Origin: Candidatus Omnitrophota bacterium
Lineage (GTDB): Bacteria; Omnitrophota; Gorgyraeia; Gygaellales; Profunditerraquicolaceae
Assembly (NCBI GenBank): GCA_030691585.1
Contig: JAUYEC010000109.1
Span: 1 to 15,619 of the forward strand
Reading direction: 5' to 3'
DNA: 15,619 bases
Position numbers and translations under genes: made by a program. This document shows positions 3,416 through 15,619 of the stretch, in pieces. Every line of letters begins with the position of its first letter. Within the stretch, counting starts at the first letter, position 1. The notes beneath the pieces were generated by a model. That model had not been told where the DNA came from, did no database searches, and saw only the letters and a program-made list of their open reading frames with translations.

Positions 3416-3448
3416 TTCGTAACTCCTTCCTCAATTTTTTTCATAAGT

Positions 3449-3557
3449 TTGGGGACGTTCCCTAAGGGGACACCCTTCTAAACATGCTTATTTTTAACCT
3501 ATTTATTTACAACTACTTACGAGCGCCAAGCATGGTACCTGGGGGAACGTCCCCCAA
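3449..3557. promoter_or_regulatory. Long-range inverted repeat, TTGGGGACGTTCCC (3449-3463) with GGGGGAACGTCCCCCAAG (3541-3558), bracketing the region upstream of rbr. A nested CATGCTT/AAGCATG inverted repeat lies inside it.
   Basis: Read directly. The same GGGGGACG(T)T...AACGTCCCCC motif recurs at 8793-8823 upstream of the flavodoxin-ferredoxin gene. Confidence 0.35.
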
Positions 3558-3561
3558 GTTA

Positions 3562-4614: not shown

Positions 4615-5004
4615 TTATTTTTTTACGTTTGCTCTTATCGCAAACCTGATCACCGGCTTGTCCGGATCGTCGGTATGCACATATACAAACTGCTTTGTCG
4701 GGCCATTATATCCTTTGGCTTTAAATTTTACTTCAATAGTCGTCTCTTCGCCCGGCGCAAGCTGTTTTTTCTTTACCGTCGACACCGTGCAGCCGCAAGA
4801 AGTAGTTACCTCCTTGATATTTAAAACTTTCTGGCCATGATTTTTCAGGACAAAGTTATGCGTCACAACCTGGGTCTCCTGCACCTTGCCGAAATCCCAG
4901 GCATTTTCTTCCGCGGGGGCTGCCGTTTGCTGCTCTGCACCACACGGCCTAAGGCATACTAATGAAAAAATTACCAACACCGAAAAAAATAATATTTTTT
5001 TCAT
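4615..5004 (-). CDS. Secreted DUF1573-family protein (129 aa) with signal peptide and a conserved CGC motif
   Basis: MKKILFFSVLVIFSLVC... signal peptide. DFGKV...NHG...TTSCGCTVS matches the DUF1573 pattern. ATG 5004 (SD GGAGGT 7 nt upstream) overlaps the TGA stop of the upstream gene as ATGA. The ORF-track start at 5019 is rejected. Confidence 0.75.
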   Translation of the reverse strand: MKKILFFSVLVIFSLVCLRPCGAEQQTAAPAEENAWDFGKVQETQVVTHNFVLKNHGQKVLNIKEVTTSCGCTVSTVKKKQLAPGEETTIEVKFKAKGYNGPTKQFVYVHTDDPDKPVIRFAIRANVKK

Positions 5005-6188
5005 CCCGCGTACCTCCATAATAAAAATATTCCCAGTCCGAAAAACAATAAACCCATCAATACCTTCACCGCTATCATCCGTTCTTTTAGAAAACGTCCG
5101 AAGTCCTCCGAGGTTACCCCTGTAAGAGCGAGTGCGAATATCGCAGAAAGCGGTGCCACAAACATCAGGTTATAAAGAACCAGGTAACCAAAGGCCTGCA
5201 ATTTCAGCGGCGAGGCCTTTAAGATAAAGGCAATGGTCGGCAGATACGTCTGCCCCGTGCAGACCGCCTCCAGCAATGAAATAAGAAATCCGCAGATAAA
5301 GGCGCTGATGACAAGATCCCACAAAACGTTCTTTTTGGGCTGGTCCCCTCCGGTTTTCCTGTAGTGCAGGCCGATGACATGATGGATCCTGTTCTTGATA
5401 CTTTGCGGCAGCTGCAGCAGGAGCCCGTCCGCGGAGCCGGTTTTCTTAAATTTAATTATATCATACACCGCGGCAATTCCCAGCGCGATACTGAAGACCC
5501 CGATACCAATATTGATTGCTCTAGCCGCCAGCCAAAAACCTTTCAGGTAATAGAGGAAATTGAATATACCCAGGCCAAGCAACAAATATGTCAAAAAGAC
5601 CGCAAAGATAAAAGTGCTGCCTACGACAATAAGCTCTCTTTTTTTATAGCCCTGCAGCGCCAGATACGAGATGAAAAAAACGATCACGGTAAAGGCGCAG
5701 GGATTAATGCCGTCAATAAGCCCGGCGCCTACGACAGCCAGCGGCTTAAAAGCGCGGAAGCGCTCGGTTAGATCCACAGGCTCAAGGCTGCTGCCTGCAC
5801 TGGATGTGCCTGCGCGGTTGATCAGCCACCTGAGATTCTGGGCGTTAACTTGCCTGCCGTTTAAGAAATTTCCTTCAAAATAAAATACCGGCACCACGAT
5901 CTCCAGGCCTTTTTGGTATTTTTCCCTGAGGCCGAGGAGTAATTTATAATTTTCAATATCGCTGTTATCAAGCTCCTCTATCTCTACGCGGCCGGCAAAC
6001 TCAATTGCTATCTGCGGCAGCAATTCCGTCTTTATCTCCATACACTTGTGGCACGACGGAGAAAAAAATACCAGTAGTTTTTTGACAGGCAACGGCTCAT
6101 CAGCCGCGCATAATAGGCCGCGGGCCAGTAAAAATAAGACCGTTATAGCAAAAATTCTTTTTATCATATACCGGTGTAGGGACAGCAT
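5001..6188 (-). CDS. Thioredoxin-like domain (CHKC) fused to a CcdA/DsbD-type transmembrane disulfide-transfer domain
   Basis: Signal peptide, then a Trx fold with FFSPSCHKCM. Multi-TM region has GINPCAF and AVCTGQTYLP cysteines typical of CcdA/DsbD beta. Start may be ATG 6167 (MIKRIF... signal peptide) rather than 6188, because the ATG at 6188 sits inside a 13-bp palindromic hairpin. Confidence 0.75.
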   Translation of the reverse strand: MLSLHRYMIKRIFAITVLFLLARGLLCAADEPLPVKKLLVFFSPSCHKCMEIKTELLPQIAIEFAGRVEIEELDNSDIENYKLLLGLREKYQKGLEIVVPVFYFEGNFLNGRQVNAQNLRWLINRAGTSSAGSSLEPVDLTERFRAFKPLAVVGAGLIDGINPCAFTVIVFFISYLALQGYKKRELIVVGSTFIFAVFLTYLLLGLGIFNFLYYLKGFWLAARAINIGIGVFSIALGIAAVYDIIKFKKTGSADGLLLQLPQSIKNRIHHVIGLHYRKTGGDQPKKNVLWDLVISAFICGFLISLLEAVCTGQTYLPTIAFILKASPLKLQAFGYLVLYNLMFVAPLSAIFALALTGVTSEDFGRFLKERMIAVKVLMGLLFFGLGIFLLWRYAG

Positions 6189-6205
6189 AATATGCTGTCC
6201 CTACA
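6177..6205. repeat. Palindromic repeat GTAGGGACAGCAT-AAT-ATGCTGTCCCTAC
   Basis: Perfect 13-bp inverted repeat. It contains the annotated ATG of the Trx-CcdA gene. Confidence 0.7.
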
Positions 6206-6221
6206 AACCCATTGTGTTCCG

Positions 6222-6250
6222 GTAGGGACAGGTTTGAAACCTGTCCCTAC
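6222..6250. repeat. Palindromic repeat GTAGGGACAGGTTTGAAACCTGTCCCTAC
   Basis: 12-14-bp inverted repeat. It matches the copy at 7980-8008 at 28 of 29 positions. Confidence 0.7.
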
Positions 6251-6266
6251 AAAATCACTATCAATA

Positions 6267-7724
6267 TCAAGTGTTGCTGACAAAAGTCCGCTTCAATGAA
6301 TCGGCGAGGCGGCCGCGCTGAATTTCCCTGTTTATGGCACTTGCGATCAGGCGCGGGAACATAATGATCAGTTGAGCCACCTCCCGCACCGTAAAGAACC
6401 TGACCACAAAAATATTCTTGCCCAGCATTTTCATAAAGCGCGACGGCGTGTAAAACGAAAATCTTAACTTCCTGCCGATTTTTTTTAAGCGTGAATGGGG
6501 GAATTCATCGGAATAAAGCGCGCCGCTTTCTGTAACGTGGTAACCCGGGGTGTTTTCCGCCAGGGCCTTAAGCGGAGAAAATTTCTCGATCCTGAGCTTG
6601 TTGAGAGTAATAGAATCTACGCCGATCTCTTTGGCGAATTGCGAAATATAAAGCATCTCCTCTTCAGTCTCGCCGATATTGCCGTAAATAAAATATCCGT
6701 GATAATAGATCGGGTATTTCTTTAAAACGCTAAAGGCCTGCCTGACCGTGGCCGAGGTAAAGCCCTTGTTCATCTGTGCTAAGATCCTGTCGTGCGGTGA
6801 CTCAATGCCGATTAAAAGCACCTTAAAACCGGCCTTGACCATTTTTTCAAGCAGGCGCGGGTAACGCGCTACCTCAAGCCGGGCCTGCGCTATAAAACGT
6901 TTTTTTATTTTGCGCGCGATCAAGAGGTCGCAGATCTCCTCGGCGCGGCCGGGATTGGCGAAAAAATTGTCGTCGCTAAAGAGCACCACCTTGGCCTCCA
7001 GCCCCTCCAGCTCATCTACGACCGACTGGTTGGAGCGCGGGGCGTAGTTGCGTTTCTGGCCGAGCGGATTAAGGCTGAAGGTGCAGAATTTACAGTTGTG
7101 CGGACAGCCGCGGGCGGAGAGCACCGCGTCAAATTTCAGGTTCATCACGTCAATGCCGTTTAGCATTAAGTAATATTTATTGTGCCTTAAGGCGCGGTCC
7201 GGAAAAGCGATCGCGTCCACCCCGGGCAACGGCCTGTTGGCATTATGCACCACCGCGCCGTTCTTGCGGTATGATAGGCCCAGGATATTTTCCAAAGGCA
7301 TGCCAATTAAAATCTCTTTTATGGTCTCCTCGCCCTCGCCCCGGACGATAATATCAATACGCGGGCAGTCCCGGAAAAGCTCTTCCACTTTTTCCGTGGC
7401 TGTATAGCCGCCGACAACCACTCTAACGCCCGCCGGGATAAGACTGATCAAGGCATAGATCTCTTTTAGCTGACGGTCCCAGCCGATAGCAACACAGACG
7501 ATATCCACGCCGGAACGGATAAAATCCATCAGTTTATCAGGACGGGAAAGCTCTTCCTCGTGCCTTAAATCCAAAAGGGTAACCTTCTCCGCCAGCCCTT
7601 TGGCGGCGGTAGCCACATATTCCAGCCCCACCGGCGGAAAAAGCTTCATCGTGGAATTGGCGTTGCAATCGACGTAAGGATTCAAAAACAAAGCGTGCTT
7701 ATATTTTAGCGGTGAGTTTTCCAA
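6267..7724 (-). CDS. B12-binding (class B) radical SAM enzyme, function unknown
   Basis: N-terminal cobalamin-binding-like region (ALFLNPYV...VGLEYVATAAKG...VVVGGYTAT). Radical SAM CxxxCxxC is present (RGCPHNCKFC). The annotated start is TTG 7724 with a weak SD. An internal ATG at 7649 lacks SD and would remove the conserved N-terminal motif. Confidence 0.85.
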   Translation of the reverse strand: MENSPLKYKHALFLNPYVDCNANSTMKLFPPVGLEYVATAAKGLAEKVTLLDLRHEEELSRPDKLMDFIRSGVDIVCVAIGWDRQLKEIYALISLIPAGVRVVVGGYTATEKVEELFRDCPRIDIIVRGEGEETIKEILIGMPLENILGLSYRKNGAVVHNANRPLPGVDAIAFPDRALRHNKYYLMLNGIDVMNLKFDAVLSARGCPHNCKFCTFSLNPLGQKRNYAPRSNQSVVDELEGLEAKVVLFSDDNFFANPGRAEEICDLLIARKIKKRFIAQARLEVARYPRLLEKMVKAGFKVLLIGIESPHDRILAQMNKGFTSATVRQAFSVLKKYPIYYHGYFIYGNIGETEEEMLYISQFAKEIGVDSITLNKLRIEKFSPLKALAENTPGYHVTESGALYSDEFPHSRLKKIGRKLRFSFYTPSRFMKMLGKNIFVVRFFTVREVAQLIIMFPRLIASAINREIQRGRLADSLKRTFVSNT

Positions 7725-7758
7725 TTTAATTGTCCATCTTTAAGCTGTATTTTTACTT

Positions 7759-7953
7759 TTAGTTCTCAGGCGAATGCGGAATTACGTGTACATAACCGCC
7801 CGGCTTTTCTTTGGCGCTCATGGTGATACACTTATCAAGCTCAAAGGTGTCGGCGATAGATTTGGTCAAAGGCAGGCGCATAATGATGTCGGCGCAGAGA
7901 GCGATCAGAATAAAAAGCAGCAGGACATCTCTTCTCTCCCATTTCTGTTTCAT
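7759..7953 (-). CDS. Small 64-aa membrane-anchored protein of unknown function
   Basis: ATG 7953 has strong SD GAGGAGG 7 nt upstream. The N-terminus has KQKWERRD then a TM helix (VLLLFILIALCADIIM). The C-terminal ~35 aa is hydrophilic. It lies 34 nt upstream of the radical SAM gene on the same strand. Confidence 0.5.
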   Translation of the reverse strand: MKQKWERRDVLLLFILIALCADIIMRLPLTKSIADTFELDKCITMSAKEKPGGYVHVIPHSPEN

Positions 7954-7979
7954 GCCTATACCTCCTCTGATTGGCCTGT

Positions 7980-8008
7980 GTAGGGACAGGTTTAAAACCT
8001 GTCCCTAC
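7980..8008. repeat. Palindromic repeat GTAGGGACAGGTTTAAAACCTGTCCCTAC
   Basis: Inverted repeat. The TAG stop of the flavodoxin-ferredoxin gene (reverse complement of 8005-8007) lies inside its 3' arm. Confidence 0.7.
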
Positions 8009-8781
8009 ATCAACATATCTTCTAATTTTACGCTCGGATGATGATAGCGTTTGCGCCCAATGGTGCTTTTACCGTATTCTATAGCCTGCTGCGGGCACCA
8101 CTGCAAACAGGCCATACATTGCTGGCATCGATGCAGCCATTTCGGCCGGGCAGAGGATAATTCAATATTCGCGGCCGGACATACCCTGACGCATACGCCG
8201 CAGCCGTTACAACGATCCGTGCTGCGGAATTTCGTATCCATAACCGGAATTTTCGGGGAACATAATTTATAAAGCAGCCATCCCAGCCAGCTGAATAAAA
8301 AGAAAGTCTGTGGCGGATTGCAAATTTCCCCCCGGAGGATAATGCCCGCGATATGACCTATCTTTTCTTTTTCTTTTACAAACAATCCCTGCTGCTTATC
8401 CTCAGGGATGGCGCCGTAAAGCGGCGTATAATTGCCAGGCATCAGAATACCGAAACCGGCCGACAACTTAAACCCCTCTTCCTTAAGGAGCCTGGCCGTC
8501 TGTTTAAGCGCGCTACCAGGCTTGCCTCCGTAAGTTGCCACCGCGAAAATATATTTACCGCCGGCCGGCTTCAATTTCTTTATGAAATCCGCGACAATAA
8601 GCGGCATGCCGAACATATACACCGGATAGATTATTCCTACGCGTTCAAAGGCCGAAAGATCGACCTGCGCTGACGCTTTAGGGATGGAAATAATCTGTGT
8701 GTCACCGAGCGCCTCTGCTAGATCACGGGCAACCGTAAAACAGTTACCTGTAGCGGAAAAATAAAATATGGCGGTTTTCAT
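8005..8781 (-). CDS. Flavodoxin-like domain fused to a 2x[4Fe-4S] ferredoxin domain (resembles the family NCBI labels EFR1 ferredoxin)
   Basis: MKTAIFYFSATGN is a flavodoxin start. The C-terminus has CNGCGVCVRVCP and CQQCMACLQWCP. ATG 8781 is preferred over TTG 8790. No SD is visible. Confidence 0.8.
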   Translation of the reverse strand: MKTAIFYFSATGNCFTVARDLAEALGDTQIISIPKASAQVDLSAFERVGIIYPVYMFGMPLIVADFIKKLKPAGGKYIFAVATYGGKPGSALKQTARLLKEEGFKLSAGFGILMPGNYTPLYGAIPEDKQQGLFVKEKEKIGHIAGIILRGEICNPPQTFFLFSWLGWLLYKLCSPKIPVMDTKFRSTDRCNGCGVCVRVCPAANIELSSARPKWLHRCQQCMACLQWCPQQAIEYGKSTIGRKRYHHPSVKLEDMLM

Positions 8782-8792
8782 CTCAAGCAAAA

Positions 8793-8823
8793 GGGGGACG
8801 TTTCTATCTAAGAACCGTCCCCC
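8793..8823. terminator. Hairpin GGGGGACG-(loop)-CGTCCCCC with T-rich flanks on both strands. Probable bidirectional terminator and/or regulatory palindrome.
   Basis: On the minus strand the hairpin is followed by UUUUGCUUGAG, immediately upstream of the flavodoxin ATG. On the plus strand it is followed by TTTCTCCCTTTTC. It lies downstream of lipoprotein gene 8844-9296. Confidence 0.45.
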
Positions 8824-8843
8824 TTTCTCCCTTTTCTACTTAA

Positions 8844-9296
8844 TTATTCCTTTGCCGCGGGCTTTGCCGTGGAAAGCATGTAATCAACTACCTTATCGCT
8901 TACTTTATTCTTTTTAAGGTAATCTATGATCGAAGAAGTCAATTCGTAAGAGGAATTTGTCCTCTTGATCTCCGAGATGATCAGGTCATCCGGTGAGCCC
9001 ATGCCTGCCATATTCACTATGGCCGGGATCGGCAGATAATTGGGATTGACGGCCGCGGCTTTCTGGTCCGCCTTGTCTATTTCGTTGCCGATAAGACCCC
9101 CGCCGACTACTCCTACCGTAGCACCGATAAGCGCACCCATGGGCCCGCTACCCATCTGATGGCCGATCACGCCACCTGCGACAGCGCCGATCACGCCACC
9201 TGCGACTGCACCCGTCGTGGCCTTTGGCCCCATATTCTGACAGCCCGCAAGCGCAATTGATAAAACCAGCAAAGACGCTAAAGCAATTTTCTTCAT
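8844..9296 (-). CDS. Lipoprotein with glycine-zipper (SlyB/Pcp-like) repeats
   Basis: Signal peptide with lipobox LAGC. GAVAGGVIGAVAGGVIG...GALIGATVGVVGGGLIG is a glycine zipper. SD AAGGAGGA is 7 nt upstream of ATG 9296. A 24-nt tandem duplication at 9163-9210 encodes the repeated AVAGGVIG. Confidence 0.7.
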   Translation of the reverse strand: MKKIALASLLVLSIALAGCQNMGPKATTGAVAGGVIGAVAGGVIGHQMGSGPMGALIGATVGVVGGGLIGNEIDKADQKAAAVNPNYLPIPAIVNMAGMGSPDDLIISEIKRTNSSYELTSSIIDYLKKNKVSDKVVDYMLSTAKPAAKE

Positions 9297-13794: not shown

Positions 13795-13840
13795 AATAGC
13801 ACAATTCCCCCTTAGCTCAGTCGGTAGAGCGAGTGGCTGT

Positions 13841-14368
13841 GCGAGGCCGCCTTAGGCGGCCGAGCAAAAGGAACGGAGGTGGCATTGGCAAAGCACGATA
13901 CACGACGTTACGCCGATCGTCGCCAGTATTTAATTGCCGCAGTAAAAGCCAGACGTAAAAAAGTCAGGCAAATGGCAGTTGGATATAAAGGCGGGCGATG
14001 TCAAGTGTGCGGCTATGACCGTTGTATCGAAGCTTTAGAGTTTCATCACACCGATTCTTCCGGAAAAGATTTTAGCATATCCGAGAAAGGTTATACTCGG
14101 AGTTGGGCTAAAGTCAAAGAAGAATTGGATAAGTGTATGTTACTTTGCGCCAACTGTCATCGAGAACTTCATGCTCAAGCGCAGCTCCCGCGGGAAACCG
14201 CGGCTGAAACTGCAGGAGAATTGCTGGAAGCCCTAGCGTAACTACGCGGGTAATCAGCAGCCGAGCCCCGGAAGTCCGGGGAAGGTTCAGAGACTATGCA
14301 CCTGCTGCCTAATGCGCAAGCAATGGCAAAGATATAGTCCGCTTCCGAAAGTAATTTCGGGTTAAGCG
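13841..14368 (+). mobile_element. Group I self-splicing intron (528 nt) in the anticodon loop, carrying an HNH endonuclease ORF
   Basis: Canonical R element GTTCAGAGACTA (14285-14296) and S element AAGATATAGTCC (14329-14340) form P7. P9 hairpin CCGAAA-GTAA-TTTCGG (14345-14360) has a GNRA loop. The intron ends in G (14368). Exon 1 ends in U (13840) and can pair GGCUGU with GCGGCC (13856-13861) with a U-G wobble at the splice site. A CGCGG-GAAA-CCGCG hairpin lies at 14189-14202. Confidence 0.7.
13879..14241 (+). CDS. Intron-encoded HNH endonuclease (putative homing endonuclease)
   Basis: CQVCGYDRC...LEFHHTD...LLCANCHRELH is an HNH motif with flanking CxxC zinc ligands. The N-terminal region is basic. 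Start is uncertain: GTG 13879 or ATG 13971. The 3' end overlaps intron core structure. Confidence 0.7.
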   Translation: MALAKHDTRRYADRRQYLIAAVKARRKKVRQMAVGYKGGRCQVCGYDRCIEALEFHHTDSSGKDFSISEKGYTRSWAKVKEELDKCMLLCANCHRELHAQAQLPRETAAETAGELLEALA

Positions 14369-15619
14369 TAACCACCAGGTCCGAGGTTCGAGTCCTCGAG
14401 GGGGAGCCAATTCTCTTTAAGCCCTATTCCCGATACAAGGGAATAGGGCTTTTTGGTTGAAAATAAAAGGTTTCTGTCTTTTAAGACGAGGTTCGAGCCG
14501 AGAATTTTCAAAAAATCGCGCTTGGCGCTGGGATTTCCTTGCCAAGCGACAGAACCAGCCCTGTTACAAGTAGTTACGAACTCCTTCGCCGGTTCGAGCC
14601 ACCCGCCGCCTGCTTTCTCTATCTCGCCAAGCCGCTCCTGTAAATCTTTCTTTTCGTTGAGTAATTTTGCCTTCTTATGCTGATATTCTTCCTGAGAAAT
14701 TTCCTTAGCAATATAAAGATCAATTAACCTTTCTATCTTCTCATCAAACTCTTTTAATTTGTCGGCGGCTTGGCGAGCCGCAAAGGAAGAGGCTGTGCCC
14801 TCATCCTTAGCTAATGCTTCAAAGCGATTAATTATTTTGTCTTTAATGTCATTATCTATAAACACATTTAAGATTGCATTGTTTATCTGCTCAAGCAAAG
14901 CCTCTTCCCTAAGGTACTTTTGCGTGCAGGCGGTAAGTTTCTTGGTACAGCGATAATAAACGTGACCCTTCTTAAGTTCTGCCGTAATGCTAGCTCCACA
15001 CTCACCGCATTTCATCAACCCGGTAAAAGTAAACTTATCAGCCGTCTTTTTAATAACTCGTGTTTTCTGTGCGATTACCGCCTGCACGCTGTCGTAAAGT
15101 TTCTTAGTGATAAGCGGCGGGTGGCTCGCCTCAAACCTTTCGTCCTTATAGACCATCACCCCATAATAGAAGGGGTTGCGTAGCATTTTGGCCAAACAAC
15201 TCTTAAAGATAGGCTTGCCCGCCTTCGCCGTAAGCCCCCACCTATGTACTTCCCTTAATAACTCCTCAAGCGAATAATTACCTGTAGCGTATAACTCAAA
15301 CGCCTTATAAACAAAACGTGCTTTTTCCGGGTTAGGTTTTACTGTATGGCTTACGGCGTCGTTGTAGTAACCAAGCGGCGCAGTGCCCGGCCATTCGCCA
15401 CGGCGCAGTTTCTCTCTTAAGCCACGCTTAACATTTTCAGCGAGATTATCTATATAATATTTGCTCTGTCCGAACGCAATAGAAAGCATAAATTTTCCCT
15501 GCGCCGTGGCGTCAAAGCGGTAAGTGGGGAAACGTAGGTCAACGATCTTGCCGATATCAACCAAGTAGATAATCTTTCCGCCGTCAATGGAGTTGCGGGC
15601 AAGCCTATCCGGATGCCAG
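14362..15619 (-). CDS. Large serine recombinase (integrase). The N-terminal catalytic domain runs beyond the window end. The C-terminus is encoded antisense to tRNA exon 2 and its terminator.
   Basis: The frame is open to 15619 (..DRLARNSIDGGKIIYLVDIGK.., a resolvase-domain remnant). It has a recombinase domain (PLGYYNDAV...NPFYYGVMVYK), a zinc ribbon (CGECGASITAELKKGHVYYRC) and a coiled-coil. The tail ..ENWLPLEDSNLGPGGYA is the antisense translation of the tRNA T-arm and acceptor. The stop (reverse complement of 14362-14364) falls inside the intron's 3' end. Confidence 0.85.
   Translation of the reverse strand, partial: WHPDRLARNSIDGGKIIYLVDIGKIVDLRFPTYRFDATAQGKFMLSIAFGQSKYYIDNLAENVKRGLREKLRRGEWPGTAPLGYYNDAVSHTVKPNPEKARFVYKAFELYATGNYSLEELLREVHRWGLTAKAGKPIFKSCLAKMLRNPFYYGVMVYKDERFEASHPPLITKKLYDSVQAVIAQKTRVIKKTADKFTFTGLMKCGECGASITAELKKGHVYYRCTKKLTACTQKYLREEALLEQINNAILNVFIDNDIKDKIINRFEALAKDEGTASSFAARQAADKLKEFDEKIERLIDLYIAKEISQEEYQHKKAKLLNEKKDLQERLGEIEKAGGGWLEPAKEFVTTCNRAGSVAWQGNPSAKRDFLKILGSNLVLKDRNLLFSTKKPYSLVSGIGLKENWLPLEDSNLGPGGYA
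14419..14455 (+). terminator. Rho-independent terminator downstream of the tRNA
   Basis: AAGCCCTATTCCC-GATACAA-GGGAATAGGGCTT is a 13-bp stem, followed by TTTT. Confidence 0.6.

Follow-up and report, generated by a model that had tools for sequence, protein, structure and literature searches.

A five-gene cluster of an Omnitrophota contig read as a recent juxtaposition of three units, one of them probably a split, permuted DsbD-type reductive cascade

Five adjacent genes on the minus strand of contig JAUYEC010000109.1 raise the question of whether genes that lie so close together also belong to one system. The contig, which derives from a Candidatus Omnitrophota metagenome-assembled genome and is analysed here as a whole (15,619 bp, hereafter the window), encodes at this locus a flavodoxin-ferredoxin of the EFR1 family, a small membrane protein of 64 amino acids (aa), a class B radical SAM enzyme (rSAM), a fusion of a thioredoxin-fold domain to a CcdA-like membrane domain (Trx-CcdA) and a secreted DUF1573 protein. 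From EFR1 to DUF1573 the genes are separated by gaps of 51, 34 and 99 nucleotides (nt), followed by an overlap of 4 nt, and a first-pass annotation of the DNA had taken the five to form one redox or modification system. The five open reading frames (ORFs) are where that annotation had placed them, its domain assignments all hold when checked against Pfam and NCBIfam, and the palindromic repeats that it had noted between the genes are present (Table 1).

We propose, with a probability of about 0.6, that the cluster is instead a recent juxtaposition of three independent units, of which the third is most likely a split, permuted DsbD-type reductive cascade. The first unit would be an insertion carrying the EFR1 gene, the second the small ORF and the rSAM gene, which are paired only in a shallow clade, and the third Trx-CcdA, DUF1573 and an HtpX-type protease. 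The gene for this protease lies just outside the span that the first-pass annotation had described and was omitted there; it travels with the Trx-CcdA/DUF1573 pair.

The Trx-CcdA, DUF1573 and HtpX-type protease unit

In 84 loci collected around Trx-CcdA homologues neither an rSAM orthologue nor EFR1 was found, and the neighbours that recur are two others. DUF1573 is directly downstream of Trx-CcdA in 66 of the 75 loci that leave at least 450 nt of room, and an HtpX-type protease gene lies no more than 700 nt downstream of Trx-CcdA in 47 of the 53 that leave at least 1,500 nt. Four long contigs with Trx-CcdA at 55-60% identity carry this gene followed by an abutting or overlapping DUF1573 gene and then by a gene for an M48 peptidase of 319-321 aa, and the window has the same order. 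Wherever genes had been called (6/6 loci, the window included), Trx-CcdA and DUF1573 overlap or abut; in the window the ATG at 5004, the NCBI start of DUF1573, overlaps the TGA stop of Trx-CcdA (ATGA). Such coupling of start and stop argues for a true operon pair. The only conserved multi-gene unit at the locus is Trx-CcdA and DUF1573, usually followed by the HtpX-type protease, and it extends across Omnitrophota.

Trx-CcdA, which is recorded in an identical form at NCBI as Q8O22_04240, probably begins at the ATG at 6167; this start is preferred because the alternative at 6188 falls inside a palindrome. Its invariant cysteines are C39-x-x-C42 in the exported domain, Cys157 (in DGINPC) and Cys303 (in EAVCTGQ), the latter two being invariant in alignments of both 16 and 40 sequences, and the family also keeps a V-P motif of the cis-proline type. 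The N-terminal domain has the CxxC motif, the cis-proline loop and the export to the periplasm that characterise oxidoreductases of the Trx fold. In both AlphaFold2 models Cys157 is in the first membrane helix and Cys303 in the fourth, either inside the helix or where it is broken. A model of the membrane domain alone (predicted local distance difference test, pLDDT, 78.7; predicted template modelling score, pTM, 0.70) has six long helices with the cysteines in the first and fourth. This is the arrangement of two membrane redox cysteines, in helix 1 and helix 4, by which members of the DsbD/CcdA superfamily are recognised. A search of the PDB with the family profile gave weak Trx/DsbA matches only, and comparison of helices 1-3 with helices 4-6 by hhalign gave no signal of an inverted repeat.

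DUF1573 proteins form a large family in Omnitrophota, Bacteroidota and Planctomycetota, some members of which contain selenocysteine. The partners of Trx-CcdA, of about 130 aa, have a signal peptide and an Ig-like domain by profile (PF22544). The window protein scores 87.3 bits against PF07610 (cutoff 26.1) and matches the Ig-like PF22544 at E = 3.5e-17; its 88.4 bits against the NF041425 subfamily lie below the cutoff of 100. It carries the motif S74-C75-G76-C77, and SCGC is kept in at least 95% of 68 partners, so that the window protein has both the PF07610 domain and the C-G-C motif of the DUF1573 (OS_HP2) family. Selenoproteome tables list this family with the motif U-G-C (PMC9312934, PMC13188914), which places selenocysteine at the position of the first cysteine and thus marks a reactive site. 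No in-frame TGA version of SCGC occurs in the 84 Trx-CcdA loci. A search of the literature found no published function for DUF1573.

The third protein has the features of an HtpX-type M48 peptidase, namely a PF01435 domain (131 bits), the motif HELSH and N-terminal membrane helices; the HtpX models of NCBIfam score up to 218 bits on it, below their equivalog cutoffs. It also contains a canonical calcium-binding EF-hand loop, DLDKSGTIDANE, at residues 263-274 (pattern DxDxxGxIxxxE), which is kept in all 52 module-linked homologues (52/52) and which, by the positive-inside rule, should be cytoplasmic.

Taken together, these features suggest a relay that would run from the cytoplasm to the envelope. 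Cytoplasmic thioredoxin would reduce the Cys157/Cys303 pair of the CcdA-like membrane domain, this pair would in turn reduce the CxxC of the periplasmic Trx domain fused at the N-terminus (the DsbD-gamma part), and the Trx domain would reduce the C-G-C site of DUF1573, the Ig-like protein encoded by a separate gene (the DsbD-alpha part). DUF1573 could then serve as reductase or isomerase for targets in the envelope, and membrane-protein quality control may be the contribution of the HtpX-type protease. The linkage of the genes, their conserved cysteines and the folds are observed, whereas we infer the direction of electron flow, a redox role of DUF1573 and any functional link to HtpX; we consider that the odds on the relay itself are slightly better than even. 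More tentatively, and at somewhat less than even odds, DUF1573 may be a novel kind of thiol (or selenol) oxidoreductase with an Ig fold, which in Omnitrophota would form the alpha-like end of a split DsbD-type cascade driven by a dedicated Trx-CcdA fusion. The first-pass annotation had already seen a membrane thiol-disulfide relay here. Its view that Trx-CcdA feeds a periplasmic Trx domain stands, and is extended by the tie to the secreted DUF1573 as a phylum-wide pair, but the coupling that it had drawn to cytoplasmic radical chemistry falls away.

Several observations weigh against a DsbD-type relay. None of 16 Trx-CcdA members matches the Pfam families DsbD (PF02683) or DsbD_2 (PF13386) at E values up to 5. 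DUF1573 gave no match to the DsbD N-terminal domain (its matches are PF07610, PF22544 and choice-of-anchor D only), a profile search of the PDB found no solved structure for it (only a spurious match to a designed repeat protein), and its Ig-like fold is assigned from Pfam profile matches only. The comparisons that define the unit all lie within one phylum, and beyond HtpX the block often runs on into an Asp/Lys-tRNA synthetase gene and an FtsX-type ABC system; this continuation into housekeeping genes means that the HtpX linkage may partly be inherited gene order.

The remaining points on that side belong to the main rival of the relay, in which Trx-CcdA and DUF1573 would deal with a thiophilic metal or metalloid, the ion being bound by the periplasmic CxC and CxxC and passed to the membrane cysteine pair for transport, in the manner of MerP/MerT or ArsG. 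ArsG is a permease and not an electron carrier, and the membrane domain has no profile match other than weak ones to the ArsG family (NF040495; 13 of 16 members, best E 5.8e-7). Metal-homeostasis genes lie within about 1.2 kb downstream of Trx-CcdA in six of the nine loci that lack DUF1573 (L131, L144, L150, L159, L160 and L161), and are directly adjacent in four; they encode CsoR/RcnR-type repressors in two loci (with DUF1805), NikR, CDF proteins in two and Rrf2. DUF1573 has, besides its two cysteines, an invariant His49, Asp37 and Glu86, which together could build a metal site, and variants with selenocysteine in place of cysteine are also known for metal-binding proteins in the same selenoproteome tables. 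A CbiQ/CbiO transporter is found upstream in several of the main loci, but CbiO is immediately upstream in only 6 of 54. Against metal handling, the Trx domain retains the full oxidoreductase signature of CxxC and a cis-proline V-P, and the modelled membrane domain places one cysteine each in helix 1 and helix 4, as in electron carriers. A copper-linked context is moreover also typical of the redox system ScsB/ScsC (PMC3322552), so that by analogy with the Scs system a link to copper would be compatible with a redox function too. On balance we regard metal handling as unlikely.

A second rival is clearly improbable. Here Trx-CcdA would supply reductant of the CcdA/ResA type for cytochrome c maturation (System II), with DUF1573 and HtpX as syntenic bystanders. 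CcdA with a membrane-tethered Trx-like protein is a known reductant route (PMC2631958), and some JGI records name the homologues 'cytochrome c biogenesis protein CcdA'. However, ResB/ResC (CcsBA) and haem-handling genes were seen neither among the called genes of the annotated loci nor in the 16 commonest gene families of the 84 loci, and the start/stop coupling with a DUF1573 of invariant SCGC points to DUF1573 as the partner.

The radical SAM gene and the assembly of the locus

The window rSAM has a PF02310 domain (49.5 bits) and a PF04055 domain (67.9 bits) with the motif CPHNCKFC at residues 207-214, and thus the cobalamin-binding domain and the CxxxCxxC core of class B. Beyond this, the profile comparison that the first-pass annotation had suggested gave no clean fall into a known class B subfamily. 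None of the 26 NCBIfam matches comes near its cutoff (HpnJ, the highest, scores 123.6 bits where 577.6 are required), and none of the cutoffs for HpnJ, BchE, HpnR, PhpK, the ladderane rSAM, Mmp10-type enzymes, BzaD or the C-methyltransferases of ribosomally synthesised and post-translationally modified peptides (RiPPs) is reached; the nearest PDB chain, 9ccb_A, is distant (E = 1.3e-6). Close homologues number in the hundreds and are nearly all from Omnitrophota. Orthologues are 60-73% identical across that phylum and 47-57% identical in Nitrospinota and Desulfobacterota, full-length relatives extend down to about 40% identity (about 25 clusters at the 50% level), and beyond them lie generic class B enzymes. 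The rSAM forms a discrete orphan class B family and lies outside the conserved module. One relative, P0242 (48% identical), is fused to a C-terminal MobA-like nucleotidyltransferase domain, which, as a weak lead, could mean that the substrate there is nucleotide-activated; a gene for such a nucleotidyltransferase was found neither near any of 81 rSAM loci nor in the window.

If the five genes formed a single system, EFR1 would be the low-potential reductant of the B12-dependent rSAM, the 64-aa peptide its partner or substrate and the Trx-CcdA/DUF1573 relay its coupling to the envelope. What speaks for this is the adjacency and common direction of the genes in the window, together with some tight junctions in close relatives, which are set out below. 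The common direction is real, all five genes being on the minus strand, but it is unspecific: between 1402 and 13441 that strand carries an unbroken run of 16 large ORFs, so co-directionality carries no weight. We ran all 17 window proteins by tblastn against 79 species-level genome loci with rSAM orthologues of 47-73% identity, taken with up to 10 kb on each side, and found EFR1, the 64-aa protein, Trx-CcdA, DUF1573, HtpX and the glycine-zipper lipoprotein encoded next to the cluster near the rSAM gene in none of them (0/79). No small ORF resembling that of the 64-aa protein lies upstream of the rSAM gene in these loci either. When the neighbouring ORFs were clustered in search of recurrent partners, the most frequent were a DEAD-box helicase (20 of 79 loci), an FtsX permease (18/79), a PlsC-like acyltransferase (9/79), and PabB and FabZ (6/79 each), and none was a consistent partner. 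The first-pass annotation had itself named a comparison of gene neighbourhoods as the check on its proposal, with a lack of co-location elsewhere as its refutation, and across these 79 loci and the 84 around Trx-CcdA no co-location was found.

The same rSAM orthologue therefore appears elsewhere in Omnitrophota in unrelated contexts, which implies a general role, and the high conservation of the enzyme in variable surroundings likewise points to a general cellular role. An identity of 60-73% phylum-wide also implies a substrate common to genomes that lack the peptide.

Close relatives of the window allow the history of the cluster to be followed. L167 (rSAM 75% identical) has the glycine-zipper gene, the rSAM gene and a response regulator; L081 (80%) has CbiQ, CbiO, the glycine-zipper gene, the small ORF and the rSAM gene; L166 (85%) has the small ORF, the rSAM gene, Trx-CcdA, whose start the rSAM stop overlaps by 8 nt, DUF1573 and HtpX; and L080 (93%) has an M50 gene, a gene for a 136-aa protein, the glycine-zipper gene, the small ORF, the rSAM gene, one palindrome and Trx-CcdA. 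L088 has no rSAM gene, its order being the glycine-zipper gene, a gene for a 101-aa protein, Trx-CcdA, DUF1573 and HtpX. The glycine-zipper gene accordingly adjoins the rSAM gene, or the pair of small ORF and rSAM, in L080, L081 and L167, and in L088 and L089, where no rSAM gene is present, it is found near Trx-CcdA. Because the block exists in L088 without an rSAM gene, the small-ORF/rSAM pair would itself have been placed into an older block, on the side facing the glycine-zipper gene and thus between that gene and Trx-CcdA, and the nested series of L167, L081, L166, L080 and the window appears to show a stepwise assembly.

In L080 the terminator hairpin of the glycine-zipper gene is followed at once by the ribosome-binding site of the small ORF, and at exactly that point the window has 816 extra nt, with precise indel boundaries and collinear flanks. 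EFR1 is absent at this position in L080, L081 and L167 alike. The EFR1 gene is a recent insertion specific to the lineage of this contig, and so cannot be an ancestral dedicated reductant.

The 64-aa protein, which had been regarded as a further part of the rSAM system, has a similarly narrow distribution. The small ORF is a genuine gene, with a ratio of non-synonymous to synonymous substitution (dN/dS) of about 0.11 between the window and L080, but one confined to a shallow clade. Homologues occur only in L080, L081 and L166, always directly upstream of the rSAM gene (with a 4-nt overlap with the rSAM start in L081), and the ORF is absent in L167 as it is in the species-level set. A single system of the five genes is, on this evidence, very improbable.

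Also very improbable is that the 64-aa protein is a RiPP-type precursor modified by the adjacent rSAM within the shallow clade: some class B rSAMs are RiPP methyltransferases, the small ORF lies directly upstream of a class B rSAM gene and is translationally coupled to it in L081, and the rSAM has weak NCBIfam matches to ApyD and rSAM_ocin_1, but the peptide fails to co-occur with the rSAM across the rSAM family (it is missing from every orthologue locus at 75% identity or below), has an N-terminal transmembrane helix and not a leader/core layout, and has no protease, transporter or RiPP recognition element nearby, and every RiPP-family score is far below its cutoff.

Repeats and other features of the window

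The palindromes between the genes had been read as a shared feature of the cluster. Their pattern, GTAGGGRCNG-N9-CNGYCCCTAC, has four exact matches in the window against 0.00 expected (200 shuffles), and position 1348 has a fifth copy of degenerate sequence. Folding energies are about -26 kcal/mol per hairpin (z-scores -6.5 to -9). We rejected the palindromes as a cluster-specific signal: two of the five copies (1302 and 1348) fall outside the five-gene cluster, and among 165 loci scanned the family is limited to the lineage of the window, L080 (at about 11480) and L081 (at the 3' end). We also rejected the copies inside the cluster as canonical terminators, since no U-run lies 3' of them; the copy at 1348 has a trailing U-run and could act as one. 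These elements, which resemble repetitive extragenic palindromes (REP), sit at the junctions of recently rearranged genes, and between the rSAM gene and Trx-CcdA their number is none in L166, one in L080 and two in the window. In a compact genome an operon can thus be mimicked by closely spaced genes that share repeats and a common direction, and nested indels in relatives expose the history.

Table 1. Coordinates of the genes and repeat elements of the locus
Feature	Position (nt)	Strand	Basis or remark
EFR1 flavodoxin-ferredoxin	ORF 8005-8790, probable ATG 8781	-	NF038196, Flavodoxin_5, two CxxCxxCxxxCP motifs
Small membrane protein, 64 aa	7759-7953	-	One hydrophobic N-terminal helix
Class B (B12-binding) radical SAM enzyme, 485 aa	6267-7724	-	PF02310, PF04055, CPHNCKFC
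Trx-CcdA fusion, 388 aa	5001-6167 (ORF 5001-6188)	-	Signal peptide, Trx-fold domain, CcdA-like domain of six predicted helices
DUF1573 / OS_HP2-like secreted Ig-like protein, 129 aa from ATG 5004	4615-5004 (ORF to 5019)	-	PF07610
HtpX-type M48 zinc metalloprotease, 320 aa	3562-4524	-	PF01435, HELSH, EF-hand loop DLDKSGTIDANE
Glycine-zipper lipoprotein gene	8844-9296	-	Older neighbour of the block
Lineage-specific 816-nt insertion with EFR1 gene and one palindrome at its 3' end	7969-8784	-	Collinear flanks in L080
REP-like palindrome GTAGGGACAGGTTTAAAACCTGTCCCTAC, between EFR1 and small ORF	7980-8008		Pattern match, fold
Two REP-like palindromes between rSAM gene and Trx-CcdA	6176-6204, 6222-6250		Pattern match, fold

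The glycine-zipper gene has its own sigma-70-like promoter (12/12) at 9374-9346 and, at 8790-8826, a hairpin followed by a T-run. Within it lies a 24-nt tandem duplication (9162-9209, minus strand), in perfect register and 96% identical, which doubles the GGVIGAVA unit of the zipper. Further repeats are found elsewhere. The spacer between the HtpX-type protease and rubrerythrin genes holds a 24-nt inverted repeat (3444-3467 / 3538-3561) that is 83% complementary, with 70 nt between the arms. The region of the minus-strand ORF 997-1239 contains direct repeats (D6 and D11, at 1022-1239) of 32-35 nt, 84-89% identical and 54 and 157 nt apart, as well as an inverted repeat at 1088-1104 / 1215-1231.

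On the plus strand at 13806-14409 is a tRNA gene, not detected by ARAGORN, that a group I intron of about 528 nt interrupts (Rfam RF00028, 69.7 bits, core 14160-14361). Its 5' half is TCCCCCTTAGCTCAGTCGGTAGAGCGAGTGGCT, and its 3' half closes with the T-arm, AGGGGGA, G and CCA. If the splice sites follow U33 and G14366, the anticodon would read CGU (Thr). The intron holds an ORF for 120 aa (13879-14241) with an HNH-like motif, CANCHRELH.

Comparison with known systems

The window EFR1 is like the EFR1 family ferredoxins (NF038196) throughout, with 254.2 bits against a cutoff of 75, residues 8-250 covering profile positions 1-242 of 242, the flavodoxin-like N-terminal part and the two [4Fe-4S] motifs; there is no structural difference here, its position is that of a lineage-specific insertion with no sign of a dedicated partner, and a literature search found no published function for EFR1. 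The rSAM shares with HpnJ, BchE and HpnR an N-terminal B12-binding domain, the CxxxCxxC core and a similar length, but scores only 83-124 bits against their cutoffs of 481-650, has no hopanoid or bacteriochlorophyll context, and has a distinct C-terminal stretch of about 100 residues that is common only to the roughly 25 clusters of its relatives. As an orphan family conserved across a phylum it is a target for functional work.

For the third unit the nearest metal systems are ArsG and MerT/MerP. Its periplasmic and membrane cysteine pairs could likewise pass a soft metal, and some paralogous Trx-CcdA loci have metal-regulator and CDF neighbours; the ArsG profile, however, matches helices 1-3 of Trx-CcdA only, at about 17-30 bits against a cutoff of 200, and neither ArsG nor MerT has a fused Trx fold with a cis-proline. 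CcdA of Thermus thermophilus (PDB 5vkv) is 14% identical to Trx-CcdA, with no profile-level match. Where CcdA works with partners of the ResA/CcmG type the acceptor is a separate protein, whereas in Trx-CcdA the Trx acceptor is fused to the carrier, and the neighbour is DUF1573 and not a set of cytochrome c maturation genes.

Cho et al. (2012) described variants of the DsbD superfamily with unrelated alpha domains, and for ScsB split versions have been proposed, with CcdA, an exported Trx-like protein and an alpha module of its own acting in series (PMC3322552). ScsB and the split ScsB-alpha, which are linked to copper stress, are thus a precedent for alpha modules that are non-homologous and separately encoded (PMC3322552), but ScsB-alpha belongs to a different fold family from DUF1573, and no homologues of ScsC, PprX or TlpA were seen among the called genes of the annotated loci or the frequent gene families. 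Envelope reductive pathways have been tied to oxidative and copper stress (PMC3322552), and a dedicated phylum-wide one would therefore inform on the envelope physiology of Omnitrophota.

DsbD itself takes up electrons from cytoplasmic thioredoxin at its membrane domain and hands them to the Trx-like domain and from there to the Ig-like N-terminal domain, which reduces the substrates (PMC2631958). DsbD of Escherichia coli has, like the Omnitrophota unit, three cysteine-pair modules, namely a membrane module with one cysteine in each half, a periplasmic Trx domain with CxxC and an Ig-like module with two close cysteines, and the order of membrane, Trx and Ig-like modules that we propose would be the same (PMC2631958). 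The differences are in the parts. The Trx domain is C-terminal in DsbD and an N-terminal fusion here; DsbD has eight membrane helices, whereas Trx-CcdA is predicted to have six, as CcdA does; and the Ig-like module of DsbD is fused and uses Cys103/Cys109, whereas that of Omnitrophota is a separate, unrelated DUF1573 with CxC. The likeness of DUF1573 to nDsbD, an Ig-like module with a pair of cysteines, is one of functional analogy. By this analogy the unit most likely fits DsbD logic with different parts, that is, a permuted gamma-beta fusion and a separate, unrelated Ig-like module. The N-terminal domain of DsbD (nDsbD) was called the sole Ig-fold thiol:disulfide oxidoreductase in 2009 (PMC2631958), and if our proposal for DUF1573 is correct this family would be only the second, and would have arisen independently. 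The conserved pair gives DUF1573/OS_HP2 a first testable role, as the redox partner of a CcdA-type relay, and it would mean that a poorly known and mostly uncultured phylum has reassembled DsbD's modular logic from other parts.

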